NCBI GenBank assembly: GCA_951406725.2
Contig: OX597831.1
Coordinates: 33,976,001 to 34,040,000, forward strand
Source of the DNA: Octopus vulgaris
Lineage: Eukaryota
Length of the DNA: 64,000 nucleotides
Reading direction: 5' to 3'
Each line of letters opens with the position of its first letter. Position 1 is the first letter of the stretch. The translations under genes were made by a program, and so were the position numbers. This document shows positions 3,507-55,966 of the stretch, piece by piece. The notes under the pieces are model-generated. The model was given only the letters and a program-made list of their open reading frames with translations, did not search any database and was not told the origin of the DNA.

Positions 3507-3544
3507 ACGTAAGAGTGGCTGTGTGGCAAGTAGCTTGCTTACCA
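3507..3544 (+). mobile_element. SINE family A, tRNA-like head (5' part, interrupted by an insertion)
   Basis: GAGTGGCTGTGTGGCAAGTAGCTTGCTTACCA matches the heads at 9216, 15005 and 63862. The SINE resumes at 4829. Confidence 0.85.
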
Positions 3545-4828
3545 GCCGTTAAATTTATCTCACGGTGACCCTAATATGCAACGGTCTGGTTGCTATTTGA
3601 CTGCCCACAAGAAGCTTGCGACTTTGTAAGCCAGCCCCTTGAGGGCAAAGAAATATTGTTTCTCCCAAACTATATGGGACAAAAATTATTGAGGGCTTGG
3701 ATCTGCGGCCTACCACCCGGAGTTGAGCCCGAGTGGATAGAGGACTCTATCCGCCGGGGTCTGGGTGGGAGCAGTGCCAAGCTGCTAAATGTAAAAGTGT
3801 TGCCTGCGGCTGATTGGGAGGGGTCGAAAGCTGTTTTGACCCTATGGACCCAATCAGCCGAAAGTCTGGTTTTTCCAGATATTTGAGGATGGCCGGGTCC
3901 AGGTATCCGGTGATGCTTGAGGGACGCCTCCCAAGTGTCACCTGTGCCTGGAGACCGGCCACATTAAGAAGAACTGCCCCAGGGACCAAAGTAGGATCCT
4001 GGAGCAGTTAATGGTGGAATCTCTCCCTGCTCCCCCAATGAAGGGAGAGAAACAGAACGAGGAAATTGCTACATCCTCAAAAAAGAAAAGAAAGATGGGC
4101 AACAATGGTGACCCACGGAAAGACCCGGGAGCTGCGGGAGAAAAAGAGGACCCGTTGTGTGCAACACAGGAACCTCACCCTCCCGCGGCCCAGGGAAAAA
4201 AGGAAAAAAAGAAGAAAGAGAAACGGGACGCCGCCGGCGGATTGTAACACGCAGACGGCGTCTCTCAAGTCTCCTCAGGTGGGTGTGCCGCCGGAGAATC
4301 AATATGTGGTTCTCTTCCACAAAGAAGGAACGCTTGAAAACGAGATAGGTAAAATGAGAAGGAGAGGCCAATGGGAGGGACTTCGGTCCTGCACGGAGGA
4401 CCCCGAGTGGCCTTCGCAGGTGGCTGCGGAGGTCCTATAGGATAGCGATCTGAGCAGGATCGTGAATTCCTTCCCGGAGGACTCCTTTCAATTTATACCT
4501 GTATGGTACGGCCTGACAAAGAATGATTGCCTCAATGAAGCAATAGCGCTGGTCGGCCGGGTGACGAACTTTTTGAATGTTTTAAAAAGAAAAATTGTAT
4601 CGTATTGAGAAAGAGGTTCATTGCCTCATTGTGACTTTTGTGAAATTTTGTGACATTTTGAATTTTTTGAAAAAAGAACATTGTCTTAGAGAAGCCGAAG
4701 TCGGCGGGCGCTTTCGTCTTCTCCCATCACCATCTTTGTTCCATCACCATCATTCATACCATCAATGTCTACGTCCAGCCCGCAAAGCTACACCTGTGTA
4801 ATGCCCCTGTGGTAAATTAGATAAAATA
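3545..4828 (+). mobile_element. 5'-truncated non-LTR retroelement carrying only a degenerate L1/Tx1-like ORF1 (RRM-like region plus CCHC zinc knuckle)
   Basis: Frameshifted ORF reads LFDCPQEACDF...RAWICGLPPGVEPEWIE...EGR/PKCHLCLETGHIKKNCP (CX2CX4HX4C at 3936-3977), then a K-rich linker and a C-terminal segment to about 4580. It ends with a short 3' UTR, the A-rich end ATAAAATAAA and a 17-bp TSD AAGTAGCTTGCTTACCA (3528-3544, 4829-4845). Confidence 0.8.
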
Positions 4829-4969
4829 AAGTAGCTTGCTTACCAACCACATGGTTTCGAGTTCAGTCCCACTGCGTGGCACTTTGGGCAAGTGTCTTCT
4901 ACTATAGTCTCGTGCTGACCAAAGCCTTGTGAGTGGATTTGGAAGACGGAAACTGAAAAGAAGCCCGTC

Positions 4970-4970
<1 letters not shown>
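4829..4970 (+). mobile_element. SINE family A, continuation after the insertion
   Basis: B-box-like GAGTTCAGTCCC and body CACTTTGGGCAAGTGTCTTCTACTATAG...GGAAACTGAAAAGAAGCCCGTCG, as in other copies. Confidence 0.9.
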
Positions 4971-5011
<41 letters not shown>

Positions 5012-6186: not shown

Positions 6187-8568
6187 GTATATTTCTGCAT
6201 ATATGACGACGACTGAATACTAAAATTTACTCTAAAAATTTAGGGTCTCTTATACCACCATTCTAAATATCAAACCTTGAATTTCAAGTGAGCTTATAAG
6301 TAAGATAACCTCGATCTCGGTGCGATAACCACAGAGACACGTGAACAGGTTAACAAAATAAAAAAAATTATAATATAGGTAATAAAAACAATTTTACTTT
6401 ATATATTATTGGCATATGTTCATAATAAATAGCCTATTCGAGAGATAATTCTCTATCATTGAAATCAACTTTTATCTATGCGATTTGGGATGGGAAAATG
6501 TAAACATCGAGTTTTGTTGCGCTCACAATAACCTTTATCTTTCGTTAACCTTTCAAAAAGTTTAATGGTGATGTATAAGTGTAGTAATAACATTTAGAAT
6601 AACATATTTATATTTTTCATAAAATATCTATAATCATTTGATGGTAAATAACACAATTTGGATTACACACAACCTTTATTTTTCAATAAAATTATTTTAC
6701 GGTCATTGCAATTAAAACATAAGACACTATATTTAAAAAAAATTTCCTATCAAGATAAATGATATTGATAAAACTTCAAACCTGACACATGTATTTATCT
6801 AAAACCTATCAAATTCCTCACAATCATTACAATCTGTTTCTAAACGTTTCCTACACATATAAGACTTATCACGTATGTCTTCATTGTAAGGATTCCAGTC
6901 GGGTTCTGGTGAATCGACTTCTACTCCGACGTCGCTATTGTACAGAATATCATCTTTGGTACCATCGATGACATTAGAGATACCGCATTTTAAAAATGAT
7001 TTTATTACATTTTCTACTTTATTTTTGACCCATGCCTTTATAACGAAATCAGACATCACCAAGTGAGGCAGCACGATTAACTCCACCGTTTGTAAAAGAT
7101 TTTTCTCTATTCGTAAACCAGTCATTCCATTGCTCTCTCACATTATCTTTAAATAGTTTGTTTAAACTGACACCAGGTGGCTGCAGTATAGAAGTCAAAC
7201 CCCCAAGAATAACAACAGTATCAGTATTGGTTTTGGGTACTCACGTTTTAGTATTTGCCGTTACGTGACTAAGAAACATATCCCAAACCAATAAACTGCG
7301 TTCGTTTCGTATGGCACCTGGTCCCCCTGTTCCAAATATTCTCAATCCATAATTTCATATCACTCTCGTTCATCCACCCTGTCTCGTGAAAATGAACAAA
7401 ACCACCTGGAGGAAAATCTATTTGGGGTTTAGTTTTTTGTATTATCAGCCATGCAGGATAATACCACCGTTAAACCTCGTTTTTTCATGTCCCGTGCTCT
7501 TAACGTGCACCGTTTCTTCTCCTTTCAAATCTACCGTTTTGTTACCCAGCATGTCAAAGTTTAACGGAGTTTTATCCATATTTCCAATATGAGCCAATGG
7601 AAACTGATGCATTTTTCTCAGCTGGATGATGAACTGGTGGAAAATGGTTACTTTGTGATCGAGATCTTTGGGGCGATTTTTGTTTTCTCCCTTATTACCA
7701 GATTTTTTTCTGTTCATAAAACAACTGAACCAGCCTACTGTGGCTTTAAACTCTTTACTTTCTTCTTTATGTGATTTAGCCCATTTTAGGACATAAGGTT
7801 TTATTTTATTTCGTGTTTCAATGAAGCCATCTAGTCTCTGCTGGACTATCCATTCTGCTACATCATTTTCTAACTTCGGCCAACGAGTGCTTCTTCTTCT
7901 CATTGCACGTTTTTGTTTGGGCATTTGCCTTAATTTTTTTCTTTCTCCACTCTCTTACCATCTTCTCGGTATGTTCTAACAACAGCACAATTGTTCGAAC
8001 TCTTGGTTCCTGCTATAATTTTCAATTTGAAACTAGCCTCATATTTTCTTCTTTTCGTTGGTGATTGCATATTGGTATGGGTATAAAATAATTATAAATT
8101 TCACTTGACTAGACAGTTTGTGCTTTTATATAAAGTATATTGAAAAGGTTATTGATACACCAGGCTGACTGTCACTGTTTAGAACATTGCTGTCTTAAGA
8201 ATCACTATTATCATATTGTTGTTAGCGATTGTTATAATAGTGATAAAGTTTTGATAAAGAAGAAGAATCAGGTTCTCTTTTTAGGCGATGTATGTATGCA
8301 AAAATATTATGTAGAAACAGATTTGTTATTTCGTTTATTTTAATTTGTAAGGATATAGTAAGTAAAAAAAAAAAACTTTTGTAAAAGCATCATCTTTACA
8401 TGACCAATATTTCTAAATATACCCGTTTGTTGCAAAAGCCATTCTGTACACAAATGGTTTTGTAATTTAGCAGTCCTCTTATACTACAAACATGAGAAAA
8501 ATTTATGATTTTTTTACAAATTATGGCCTCGTCTTATCTAAAGATCGTCTTATACGCGGAAATATACG

Positions 8569-35037: not shown

Positions 35038-35069
<32 letters not shown>

Positions 35070-35284
35070 TACTTGTTTCAGTCATTTGACTGCGGCCATG
35101 CTGGAGCACCGCCTTTAGAGTGGTGAAAGAGTACAGCAGGGATCACCACCTCCTGCCGGAGCCTCGTGGAGCTTTTAGGTGTTTTTTCGCTCAATAAACA
35201 CGCACAACGCCCGGTCTGGGAATCGAAACCGCGATCCTCCGACCGCAAGTCCGCTGCCCTAACCACTAGGCCATTGCGCCTCCA
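35038..35284 (-). mobile_element. Chimeric SINE: family C head, family A 3' tail and poly(A)
   Basis: 35120-35284 matches 18450-18612. 35069-35117 matches the family A tail. About 31 T on the plus strand at 35038-35068. Confidence 0.85.
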
Positions 35285-35421: not shown

Positions 35422-35461
35422 GGCGTAGGTGTAGTTATATGGTAAGAAGCTCGCTTCCCAA
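35422..35461 (+). mobile_element. SINE family A head, cut off at the insertion site
   Basis: GGCGTAGGTGTAGTTATATGGTAAGAAGCTCGCTTCCCAA versus GGCGCAGGCGTGGCTGTGTGGTAAGAAGCTTACTTCCCAA at 15005. Confidence 0.7.
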
Positions 35462-36580
35462 TGCGCATTCGTTGTTGTCAGTGTTGTTCGTACCACTGAT
35501 TGAAGTCGCCACGCTGGTTTGAAGCTGGTGAAATAGTGATTAAAAAAGAAGCTCAACTGCAAGGTAGAACTTTTGCTTTTTTGATCCAGTGGGGGGTTTG
35601 TTGTTTGCCGTAAATATTTTTTTTTACAAACAAGAAGTCCTCAGTGGATTCTGGACTCGGGTCTGCCTACAGTTGAGTGAATAGTTTTTCTCACTTAATT
35701 GTGAGAAATGTTATTTGGGGGGGCGTATCTCGCTTCCAAAAATTTGTTCACTTTAAGCGAATAGTTTTTCTCACTTAATTGTGAGAATTGTTGTTTCCAA
35801 AATTTGTTCACTTTTAGTGAATAGTTTCTTTCAAAAATTGTGAGAATTCACCGAAGATACAACTTATTTCACCAATTTTTGTGGAAGCTGTGTTTCAAGT
35901 TGTGACGTTCTGGGTTCAAATTGGATTACAAAGTGGGCGTGGATTACCTAGTGGCCAGAAGATTTTTGCTTGCTGGGTTTTTTTCAACTGTAGACTTTTT
36001 TCTTTCTTCTATCTTTTATTTGTGACTTTCTTTTTATTGAACTGTTTTCTTTTTTCTTCCTTCCTTTTTGTTGTGATTTTCTTTTGATTTTTTGATTTTT
36101 CTTCCCTCCTTTTTTAAATTTTTTATCATGGACTGTCTGAACATTTTGTTTAAAAAAAAAACATGGCAAAGAACAAGGACAATGTTTTGGAGTAGGAAAT
36201 TGTACCACCCAAACAGTGGTTGAAAGACTTTGAAGAGAGGACGGTGGTATTGAGGACTTACTTCAAGTCGCTCGAAACCATCGCCCAAGTTGAAAAGAAT
36301 GTTATCGAAAGGGAGTTGGCAGAGAATCTGCCAGCAAATTAAATTCATCTCCAAGGGTTCAAATATGCAACGGTGTGGTTACTATTTGACACCCCCTGAG
36401 GAGACCCGCAAATTTGAGAGTCAGCCCTTGGAGAGCAAAGAGATTTTGTTCTTTCCCACGTATTGTGGGAAGTTGACAAGAGCTTGGGTCTGCGGGTTGC
36501 CAACTGGGATAGAACCCGAGTGGATAGAGGAGACTATCCGCCTGGGTTTGGGTGGCAGCGGAGCCAAGCTCCTCAATGTA
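35462..36580 (+). mobile_element. 5' part (putative 5' UTR plus ORF1 N-terminus) of a second L1/Tx1-like ORF1 element
   Basis: ORF from ATG at about 36163: MAKNKDNVLE*...ERTVVLRTY..., then SQPLESKEILFFPTYCGKLTRAWVCGLPTGIEPEWIEETIRLGLGGSGAKLLNV, clearly homologous to 3590-3886. The 3' part is lost at a (TA)n tract. Confidence 0.75.
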
Positions 36581-37499
36581 ATATATATATATATGTTTTT
36601 ATATATGTTCTTTTTTGTTTTTGCTTGGGATATGCAAGCCTAACCATATAAATCCCTGGTTCTATGCATAAATTGTTGATAAAACAAGTTATAACAACAA
36701 ACGGATTTTATACACTGAAAAGTCGACGTTCGAATGTATTTGCATAATGATGCCTCAGGAATCTAGCATATATTATATACTATATAATAATAGAACAACA
36801 TTCTTGAGATCGAATAGCGATGAAACAATTGTAAATTTATGTAATAAAATGACTTGCTCACTCCATTCTCCTTGTGAATATTTATATAAACTCATCAAAT
36901 ATTTATGGATTTTCCGAAATATTACCTGTGAAACAATCAGTCTGCGATTTAAAGTCAAATGTTATAGCTTAATGGAATGACCTCAAGAACTAAAACCTGA
37001 ATGGAATTGATATTATAAATATAAGGATCATTAAATGGCGTTTAAAGTTTACAACATATAATACATTTCATTAGAAACCCATATATGGCGTTACAGCCCA
37101 TAACAGATGCCTGGTATTACTCAGATAAACCCATATAACTGAGTGAGCAAACATAAGAAGAAAAGAGTATATACATACACGGTCACACGCACATATACAC
37201 AAACATACATGTATATGTATGTATATATATATGTATGTATGTATTGGTCATCAATCTTATTATTCATTTTGATTCATTTCAAATCATTAGTAATTTGCTA
37301 AATGACCGCGGTGATGGCAAATTTATGTTCATTAGAATAGGGAAATGTCGGCAGGATTGTCGATTGTCCTCTAATAAATTACGATCTTAAATGAGATAGC
37401 AATAGATCTAATAAAACCAATGAGAAACACACTTCCATATTGCTTGCTTCCAGCTATATTCGTCTCAATGAATTATACCTACAAGTTATGAAATCATAA

Positions 37500-52894: not shown

Positions 52895-54209
52895 TATTCT
52901 GAAAGACTCTCGGATAGTTCTTAATTACCGGTTATTCTTTACTTGAAAACAGACAAAACCAAATCACCAAAGGTTTCAAAAGTGACTCAAAGAGACAATA
53001 TTCTCCTTAGAATGCGAGCTGCACCCAACAATGCTGTCTTCTGGATCACTTCGAGCCTGACAGTTAGCTCTAATATTCTTAATGTGTTTTTCAAAGCCCT
53101 TGGAAGCTGCTCCTAATGCTCCAATTACCACCGGTATCACAATTTCTTTCCTCGTACCTCATAACTTTCCTATCTTGTTCTGCGGTGGCTGCTAATTTTC
53201 AGTTTTTTTCTGTTTCCTTACATTTTACCCTCAAATCGCCTGGTATTGCAGCATCTATTAACTCTACTTTTTTTTCATCTTTATCGATGAGTACGATAGC
53301 TGGTCGTGTCGCCTCTATGACTTGGTCGCACTGCATGTTAAAATCCTAGAGAATTTTCTAATGTTCCTTTTTCCATCACTCCCTCTGGCTTGTGTTTATA
53401 CTATTGTTCGGCTCACTCAAGGTTTGCTTTACCACACAAATGGAAATAGTTGGCCACATTGTCGTGTCTCCTTTTGTATTCTCGTTGTGCAAGCTTACAG
53501 CATTCGCTAACAATATAGCTTATACGAACCAAGCCAGGCTATTCTCCTCTTTCCTTACACAATCTTCACAACACACCAATCTCCGTTCCCCTTCCTTCCT
53601 CTTCACATACAATCTTGATTCATCACTCTTGGAGTGTAGTTCCTAGTTCCTTGTCATTAATTTACGTGTTTTCCGGCCTATCTTTTGTAATTCATGCTTC
53701 TTCCAAGATACTATTCCTGCCCCATATCACATCAAATCAACCGCCCACGTACTGCTCTAATCTTACAGCGGCCATTTAGCTTCGATTGGAGCACAAGCCG
53801 GGTTTTCCTCAAATACTCTTCCTTGTACATTTCTTTCATGTTGTGTTCATTCATCTTATCTTTTTCAATGATACCCAGGTACTTATATCCTTCTTCTCCG
53901 ACTTCCTTTATAGTTTCACCACTTTCCAGCTTGATCCCATGGCTTTTACTGATTTCCCCCCTTTTGAGAATCATTACACCACATTTCTCGATCCCAAATT
54001 CCATGTCCTTATATTTGCTAATCATCTGCACAGTAGCCGTCAAACACTCAATTTCTTTCTCGGTCTTAGCGAATAGCTTTAGGTCATCCATAAACCACAG
54101 GCTGTTTACTTTCACCCGGCCTAGCACGTACTCCACACGCATCTTTCTTAAAACGCTCGTTAGTGGCAGGTTGCAGACAACAAATAGGAGAGGCGACAAA
54201 CTGTCCCCA
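52895..54209 (-). mobile_element. Dong/R4-clade non-LTR retrotransposon, 5'-truncated and internally deleted
   Basis: RT motifs GDSLSPLLF...FMDDLKLFAK...FGIEKC...YKYLGI; IVSECCKLAQREYKRRHDNVA; RLE motifs RPAIVLIDK...IDAAIPGD...VIGALG. Flanked by (TAT)n. Confidence 0.9.
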
Positions 54210-54219
54210 ATTATCATTA

Positions 54220-54269
<50 letters not shown>

Positions 54270-54290
54270 GTTACTTTTTTTTTCTTCTTC

Positions 54291-54880
54291 TTTCAAATTT
54301 GCTTCCATTTCTTGCCGAGTGTCTTCCTGACTCCTAGGGCAAAGAAACTCATACATTGGTAGGCCATTAAACCAAACTCAGTAGTTCGTTCATTTTTTTT
54401 TTTTTTATTTTTTTTTTAAAGTTAAATTAAAATACATGAGCAGCAACAGTTCTCACATCGACAATGCTCTTCTCAATACGTGTGATGTACCAGTTAAGAC
54501 AATCTTTTGCACTTCTTGCAGGGATGGTAAGCCAGGGATCATTCTCATATAATTTTCGGTTCCCTTCTTGATCATTCCTAGTGCTCCTACGATCACTGGT
54601 ATTGTAACCGCCTTGAGATGCCACATTTTCTCAATTTCAATGAGTAGGTCTTTATATTTTCTGAGCTTGTCAAACTCTTTCGCTGAGATATTATGATCAC
54701 AGGGGATGCTCATGTCGATCAATAAGCAAACTTTATTGTTTTGGTCTTTCACAACAATATCTGGTTTATTGGCCTTGATGGTTCGGTCTGTATGTACTGG
54801 AAAGTCCCACAGAATGGTTACATTTTCTCCTTCAGTTACAGCCTCAGGGTGGTGATTATACCACTTGTCGGCAGTTTTGA
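54291..54880 (-). mobile_element. Second Dong/R4-clade element, 3' end (RLE domain open to the stop at 54453)
   Basis: WYNHHPEAV..ILWDFPVHTDRTIKANKPDIVVKD..LIDMSIP..KLRKYKDL..IPVIVGALG..QKIVLTGTSHVLRRALSM*. (TAT)n on both sides. Confidence 0.9.
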
Positions 54881-54983
<103 letters not shown>

Positions 54984-55966
54984 TCGCTTAGGCAGAGAAG
55001 TGCTGATAACTTAGTGTTAGAACTAAAAAAACACATAATTCAGAAACACGCGTCAGTCGAGTAGAGAACAGTAGTAAGAAATTAAATGACACGGGAATAA
55101 GAAGTTATGTAAGGAAGTTCAAAAAATAATTTCTTAATTTCTTTTAACCTTGTACTTAATTCACTGTTTGGGTTCCGGCCATCCTGGGGCACCGCATTGA
55201 AGTGCTTAGTCAAACAAATCGACCCCAGCACTTCTTATTCTTTAAGCCTGGGACTTATTATATCGATCGCTTTCGCCTAACCACTAAGTTACGGGAACGT
55301 AACCAAACCTACTTTGGTTACGTAATTAGTACTGATGTCTCCTTTACTTTTTCTTTTCTCTCATTAATTTAGAAAACAATTAGCGGAATATTTCTTCATT
55401 AACTGGATAATTATTAGTTACTGATATCCTTTCCATTTACGTGTCCAGTCTTGACACGGCAAATAAAAAACTCAAAATTATCACGTGCCTTAAAAAGCAC
55501 CATTTAATATAATTTTCTATATCTTTTAAAATCATTTTCGGTTTTATTTTTTATCATTGGTGTTTTATCTGTTATTTGCAGTTTTTTTTCCTTATTTTAT
55601 TCTCAAAGTTCAGTCTAAATTAAAATGACATTTGTTGCTGATATTTCGCATGATAAATGAATAAATTGCGTTCCTTGACAGAACCGACGCTAATTTTTCT
55701 TTATTAACAATATCCCAATGAAATACAAACATGAAATAAATCTGTTTTTAAACTTATTTAAAAGACGCGGAGAAAAGACACGCAAATTCAACGAAGAATC
55801 TGTTACCTTGAGGCAAAAATAATAAAACAAAAAAGGAGAAAGAAAAGAAAAATGTGTAATATCATAAACTACAAGTCAGGAAGTAAATGACACCATTTTG
55901 AGGATATTAGCAAACATATAACTTATGCAATGGTGCATATTTCATATAGAAAATAATCAACATAAT

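Follow-up and report, generated by a model that had tools for sequence, protein, structure and literature searches.

The genome of Octopus vulgaris very probably harbors a clade of L1/Tx1-type LINEs that, together with elements encoding only ORF1, inserts at a single position of an abundant SINE (GGT/AAGWAG, the slash marking the junction), likely by means of an APE endonuclease that reads about 10 bp and of nick-primed reverse transcription. The preliminary description of the DNA analyzed here, a stretch of 64,000 nucleotides (the window), had proposed from two copies that a retroelement uses a SINE as its landing site; this proposal now extends to many families. The flanks of other copies are not random, as hundreds of junctions lie at one SINE site in one orientation, and 35462-36160 is the element's own sequence, its best genome-wide matches beginning at the same TGCGCAT and most of them reaching the same ORF1.

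Copies in the window and their families across the genome

The two copies in the window, both of which run with the SINE head as had been reported, comprise the following features.

3513..3544, + strand: 5' half of the copy 1 host SINE, AAGTAG variant, with the upstream duplication at 3528-3544
3545..4828, + strand: copy 1 (family A), a 5'-truncated ORF1-only element with a broken ORF1 and one CCHC knuckle at about 3933-3980
4829..4975, + strand: downstream duplication of copy 1 (4829-4845), then the remaining SINE head and body as far as (TA)n
35422..35461, + strand: 5' half of the copy 2 host SINE (AAGAAG variant), a tRNA-like head that includes the A box and carries the leader/duplication at 35444-35461
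35462..36162, + strand: 5' UTR of copy 2 (family B) with the family-standard 5' end, which genome-wide matches share
36163..36581, + strand: decayed ORF1 of copy 2, N-terminal part of about 140 codons, with a premature stop and frameshifts

The ORF1s of the two copies are homologous and yet diverged (36339-36581 versus 3549-3794, 73% over 250 nt, E = 2e-35), in line with the preliminary description. Copy 1 ends in a 3' tail (4690-4828) with terminal AAATA and without poly(A), and its 5' truncation was confirmed, other copies continuing upstream of its first base. In copy 2, ORF1 starts with an ATG at 36163 and the sequence stops at 36581, where a (TA)n tract follows; the 3' part of about 1 kb and the remainder of the SINE are missing past this tract. 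Its 5' UTR contains a tandem duplication at about 35673-35848. The zf-CCHC match of copy 1 fell under the Pfam cut-off (E = 0.0026), a Pfam search with the copy 2 ORF gave no match, and an Atlas search with the latter returned CCHC/ZCCHC3-type RNA-binding look-alikes (0.90-0.92), which serve as a lead only.

The junction strings were found where they had been placed: AAGAAGCTCGCTTCCCAA lies at 35444, and AAGTAGCTTGCTTACCA occurs twice, at 3528 and 4829, as a 17-bp duplication around copy 1. In this window, the chance of a fuzzy target match beside a junction is about 0.003 per junction. The idea of a shared SINE position stands insofar as both copies lie at one site, but they represent two different families in two SINE variants. 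The fixed point had been sought in the anticodon-loop equivalent; this has to be revised, as the invariant is the 3' junction GGT/AAG and the anticodon-like stretch marks the far end of the duplication. Nor is the 5' junction sharp, given that perfect duplications vary from 3 to 17 bp in 46 loci and that full-length elements bring a target-like leader.

Contigs of the public runs X1 and X7, from one study on differently coded organisms, span the 5' junction of copy 2 with 3 and 1 differences, respectively, and this junction is therefore no assembly artefact. An empty allele at copy 2 was not seen in four runs (contigs of X1 and X7 bridge the 5' junction, X2 reaches only 25 nt beyond, and X10 has no flank), and no RNA run was listed as containing the sequence.

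Several further features of the window were observed. A second tRNA-headed SINE with a SINE tail lies on the opposite strand about 140 bp upstream of copy 2 (35067-35283, − strand). Directly after the leader, at 35462-35471 and at the 5' ends of loci L065, L062, and L070, the string GCGCATG(C/T)GC occurs, and it recurs in many families; we take it to resemble an NRF1 site and, possibly, to act as an internal Pol II promoter. Another LINE type is represented by RT-like and endonuclease-like ORF fragments at 53732-54292 (− strand) and 54453-55010 (+ strand), split by (AAT)n, and the transposase fragments at 6799-7954 (− strand) are presumably Tc1/pogo-like.

The assembly searched comprises 2.8 Gb in 227 contigs, and each DNA search scored the best 40 candidates. 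For family A, the last 139 nt of copy 1 yielded 1,234 candidates, of which the best 40 were scored and 30 fetched; AAATA followed directly by AAGTAGCTTGCT formed the 3' end in 27 of the 29 other loci (a script counted 26 including copy 1 itself, and L019 and L020 were added by eye; six are from one duplicated C13 array). For family B, the 5' UTR of copy 2 yielded 452 candidates, the best 40 of which were scored; among the 5' ends of 29 other loci, 21 had a strict AAGAAG SINE head, five had flanks that were partial, diverged, or part of an array, and in three such a flank was absent. Extension of 20 fetched loci recovered 16 3' ends, 15 of which run into a SINE head. Family B elements are 1.5 to 2.2 kb long, encode ORF1 only, and lack ORF2 similarity inside; their pairwise identity is 82%, and copy 2 is 84 to 88% identical to the members. 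The copies of the window are non-autonomous ORF1-only (half-LINE) elements of families of about 2.1 kb. Further families at the same SINE site emerged from an ORF1 search (best 150 of 11,323 candidates).

Exact 3' junctions number 710 compared with 71,914 exact free sites, an occupancy of about 1%. Off-site ends were found in 7 of 72 family B tails and also at L350, L021, and L023. At four loci (L183, L185, L187, and L276), element-tail insertions of only 52 to 106 bp occupy the SINE site and carry duplications.

A candidate autonomous LINE and its probable ORF1-only passengers

An APE-RT partner had been called for, and a candidate was found in a young, 5.4-kb L1/Tx1-type LINE with an ORF1 and an ORF2 of APE-RT-zinc-finger architecture, first met as an ORF2 C-terminus upstream of an ORF1-only copy in an array. 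A search for the partner via the zf-RVT family gave mostly non-targeting LINEs. The autonomous family comprises 40 or more copies at 99 to 100% identity; 30 of 30 fetched 3' ends lie at the SINE site (one a base short), and 15 of 16 fully fetched copies match the whole reference of about 5.4 kb. Other LINE families served as a control: of their 30 zf-RVT loci, only one lies at the SINE site, and that one is within an array.

One copy (L171) is intact, with an ORF1 of 467 aa, whose CCHC match is just under the cut-off, and an ORF2 of 1,133 aa with three domains over the cut-off (Exo_endo_phos, 10-226; RVT_1, 509-754; zf-RVT, 973-1020). Among solved structures, LINE-1 ORF2p matched the partner ORF2 best (E = 8e-67, compared with 6e-20 for R2), and a hypothetical protein from Argonauta hians is its nearest named RT relative (64%). 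By architecture, the partner belongs to the L1/Tx1 group, and it may be a member of the Tx1 clade; no labelled Tx1 reference was among the RT matches returned. It shows the hallmarks of TPRT, namely target duplications, variable 5' truncation, and a fixed 3' end (46 loci with both junctions).

In an RT tree, all 17 rows of SINE-inserted copies group in a single clade (UFBoot 100) within the genome's own L1/Tx1-like radiation; the tree was built from query-anchored pseudo-alignments, with the short rows L358, L361, and L362 left out and the AAGAAG rows chosen by similarity to one copy. Older autonomous relatives have 72 to 91% DNA identity to the query copy L181, and where their 3' end is preserved it mostly lies at an AAGAAG-type head. 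Comparison of their endonuclease domains, which are few and decayed, with those of the AAGTAG type revealed no clear distinguishing change.

Other LINEs also showed recurrent ends. Five loci of a sister LINE with an ORF2 of about 1,140 aa (L372, L374, L381, L387, and L388) end at GGAAGCGACACCTACTG, and this LINE forms tandem arrays of units of about 5.4 kb, e.g., at G000:C2:73.04-73.06 Mb; these ends possibly represent another site-specific family or the 5' ends of next copies. Non-SINE-targeting zf-RVT loci like L092, L097, and L107 often end in AATAAAGAAATCA, in some cases followed by the apparent 5' end of another LINE, and such LINEs may target each other's 5' ends.

The ORF1-only units, of about 2.0 to 2.2 kb, are multicopy, have both junctions, and lack an ORF2 match. 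Their intact ORF1s reach about 415 aa and show purifying selection (dN/dS of 0.09 to 0.40 in 10 pairs). The only relative of ORF1 in the protein database is an Octopus sinensis protein (62%), annotated as an uncharacterised gene. Because the window-family ORF1 matches that of the SINE-targeting LINE at only 27% over 197 aa, below the 29 to 40% seen for ORF1s of non-targeting LINEs, the window families are probably not simple deletion products of the partner. A second ORF1-only lineage consists of units of about 1.5 kb whose ORF1 is 39% identical to the partner's. At the first 30 junctions on C1, upstream similarity was to ORF2 in 6 cases and to ORF1-only elements in 16, the others being short or without assignment. 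The tails of ORF1-only elements and partner are similar as judged by eye, and the shared site and tail suggest that the ORF1-only families depend on the ORF2p of the SINE-targeting LINE.

Target site, probable succession with SINE turnover, and rival explanations

The host SINE is about 400 bp long, tRNA-derived, and very common, and it is possibly CORE-like. Its head aligns weakly with tRNA-Arg(TCG) (score 38) and tRNA-Thr (36). Octopus SINEs are mainly of the tRNA-Core and tRNA-Deu types (PMC8967140). OK, OR1, and OR2 are octopus tRNA-derived SINEs (Ohshima and Okada 1994, cited in PMC4758252 and PMC4824008, whose passages differ on which of OR1 and OR2 is the CORE SINE), and the host element resembles them, as described there, in being an abundant octopus tRNA-headed SINE.

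The invariant 3' junction follows SINE base 22, where the A box/D-loop equivalent ends, and precedes the B box; there is no poly(A), and 0 to 2 A's are ambiguous. Perfect duplications in the 46 loci with both ends have modes of 8 to 10 and 15 to 17 bp, and this spread ruled out a target site duplication of 15 to 17 bp as a general rule. In truncated copies, the duplication includes private variants of the host SINE (14 bp at L008 and 16 bp at L155), whereas full-length autonomous copies (L172, L174, L175, L176, and L178) have CTAACC upstream even though the host differs downstream. Mixed tandem arrays arise at single SINEs; one on C7 has 13 junctions within 28 kb, and another on C1 has seven 2.0-kb units ahead of an autonomous copy. 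At C13:23.04-23.08 Mb (L131-L134), an element array occurs twice, the two versions being inverted relative to each other and spaced about 20.4 kb apart. In the leaders of L076, L081, and L165, a second degenerate target-like stretch lies behind the first; these stretches, possibly stacked remnants of earlier junctions (nested fossil AAGAAG sites), are suggestive only.

These features are consistent with a mechanism in which the endonuclease would nick the bottom strand at 5'-CTT/AC-3', the terminal A's of the RNA would pair with the exposed T's, and the second strand would be cut usually 8 to 10 nt and up to about 16 nt away. The target-like 5' leader of the element may then anneal to the overhang and restore the full 15- to 16-bp site upstream; such a rebuilt site would let later elements insert in front, so that arrays grow and become mixed. 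ORF1-only RNAs would be served by ORF1p in cis and by ORF2p borrowed through the shared tail, and each insertion would part the A box from the B box and probably silence that SINE copy.

The families divide between two SINE variants. Among 72 matches to the family B tail pattern, 51 were exact AAGAAG, 12 near-AAGAAG, 2 AAGTAG-type, and 7 other. The family A tail, by comparison, was joined to AAGTAG in 20 of 21 matches, the autonomous tail in 99 of the 100 matches listed (115 total), and a young ORF1-only tail in 98 of the 100 listed (224 total), none of the three with AAGAAG; the patterns left the flank free except for one 3-of-4 base. AAGAAG makes up 9.2% of exact free sites (6,644/71,914), at which share 0 of 100 has a p of about 6e-5 (a smaller sample, 0 of 30, gives p ~0.055). 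Since that variant was available and yet unused, the young elements discriminate against it. The avoidance of AAGTAG by old families may only mean that this variant had yet to arise. Divergence from the group majority is 12.8% for AAGAAG SINEs (n = 21, none <5%) and 5.7% for AAGTAG SINEs (n = 50; p = 7e-8) in a sample of intact SINEs from fetched DNA, which is biased to loci near elements. As AAGAAG SINEs are the older ones, targeting likely followed SINE turnover, and succession is the simplest reading of the variant partition.

Judged from the sequences alone, the target of the DNA-cutting enzyme likely changed as the SINE changed, and endonuclease specificity would have shifted from AAGAAG to AAGTAG with the turnover of SINE subfamilies. 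A possible, if rather doubtful, extension is a reciprocal coevolution in three tiers, in which the SINE bases read by the parasite would have changed from AAGAAG..TCC to AAGTAG..TAC/AAC and thereby escaped promoter-splitting insertions, the LINE endonuclease would have been re-tuned, the ORF1-only hyperparasites would have switched too, and insertions would rebuild the site. Escape by the SINE is possible, and an occupancy of 1% implies weak pressure.

Sequence reading by the endonuclease has to be weighed against site choice by other means. The primer might pair with read-through RNA that carries AAGWAG, or SINE-bound TFIIIC might recruit the complex: element 5' ends carry target-like sequence, arrays would yield read-through transcripts, each ORF1-only family keeps to a single variant, and the target site adjoins the A box. 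We nevertheless consider RNA-DNA pairing or tethering by Pol III factors unlikely, in that the downstream duplication follows the variants of the host SINE and upstream and downstream types are concordant in 45 of 46 loci, while tethering alone would not tell apart two variants differing at one base. Moreover, recognition of about 10 bases suffices, because a 10-bp motif is expected by chance about 3,600 times compared with at least 65,000 SINE sites.

That the SINE is by-catch, and that the elements aim, or once aimed, at a tRNA gene or another multicopy RNA gene, is suggested by the tRNA-like SINE head and by related elements that hit U2, 5S, and tRNA-spacer sequences (PMC4494074 and PMC3706591). 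Such a target is very unlikely here, as junctions without another element next to them nearly always adjoin a SINE body and a search for an element tail abutting the D-arm motif of tRNA-Arg(TCG) gave 0 matches; among the 35 distinct tRNA-like sequences fetched, none was a gene for tRNA-Gly, the putative source of the head. It is scarcely credible that the element includes the SINE halves or that all copies go back by duplication to one insertion, although one C13 array is segmentally duplicated and leaders resemble the target: copies are variously truncated (52 bp to 5.4 kb), each with its own duplication, elements that are 99% identical lie in mutually different SINE copies, and one site is used both by families whose ORF1s are 27% alike and by ORF2-bearing ones. 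We therefore retain repeated, sequence-specific insertion into the SINE head as the preferred reading.

Significance and comparison with known systems

Site-specific LINEs thereby gain a further target class, the promoter of a SINE that is dispersed and continues to amplify, in a genome in which the ages of target, autonomous element, and passengers can all be estimated. The natural one-base switch makes a change of APE endonuclease specificity testable, and a young, intact LINE with about 99% of its listed ends at one short motif is a candidate site-specific insertion enzyme. Octopus repeat annotation is also affected, as arrays reach 28 kb and one ORF1 is annotated as an O. sinensis gene. 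HeT-A and TART form mixed arrays, and the octopus arrays are alike but interstitial.

A SINE-targeting LINE or these octopus families were not found in the literature searched, including the passages of PMC3747384, PMC8869645, and PMC9115989 with respect to a SINE-targeting LINE; Repbase, subscription journals, and supplements may describe them. In PMC4494074, a target preference is recognized when >20% of flanks are of one type; the corresponding values here are 99/100 and 98/100 among the matches listed, 63/72, and 20/21.

The octopus LINE resembles Mutsu (MutsuDr in zebrafish 5S rDNA) as a two-ORF LINE of about 5.5 kb that interrupts a Pol III gene about 20 nt from the gene's 5' end, with subfamilies divided between target sequence variants (PMC5340908). 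As Mutsu is described there, the octopus system differs in that its target is a dispersed, mobile SINE rather than a clustered host gene, its target variants differ in age, a poly(A) tail is absent, and ORF1-only families are numerous. With Tx1L (in the piggyBac Tx1D) and Tx1-Mar/SINEU-3 (in Mariner-N4_AMi), it shares another transposon as the target, a duplication of about 16 bp, tandem copies sandwiching a duplication, and non-autonomous passengers on the same target (PMC4494074). The targets given in that source, however, are DNA transposons, LTR elements, or microsatellites, whereas the octopus target is a SINE promoter, and octopus passengers, unlike those of the Tx1-Mar/SINEU-3 system, encode ORF1. 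Finally, HAL1, HeT-A, and Ag-Sponge likewise have ORF1 only, lack an RT, maintain ORF1, and depend on a partner LINE (PMC5753468 and PMC5786205), a dependence that is probable for the octopus elements as well. Unlike these elements as they are described, those of the octopus are sequence specific for a SINE and comprise at least two ORF1-only lineages.
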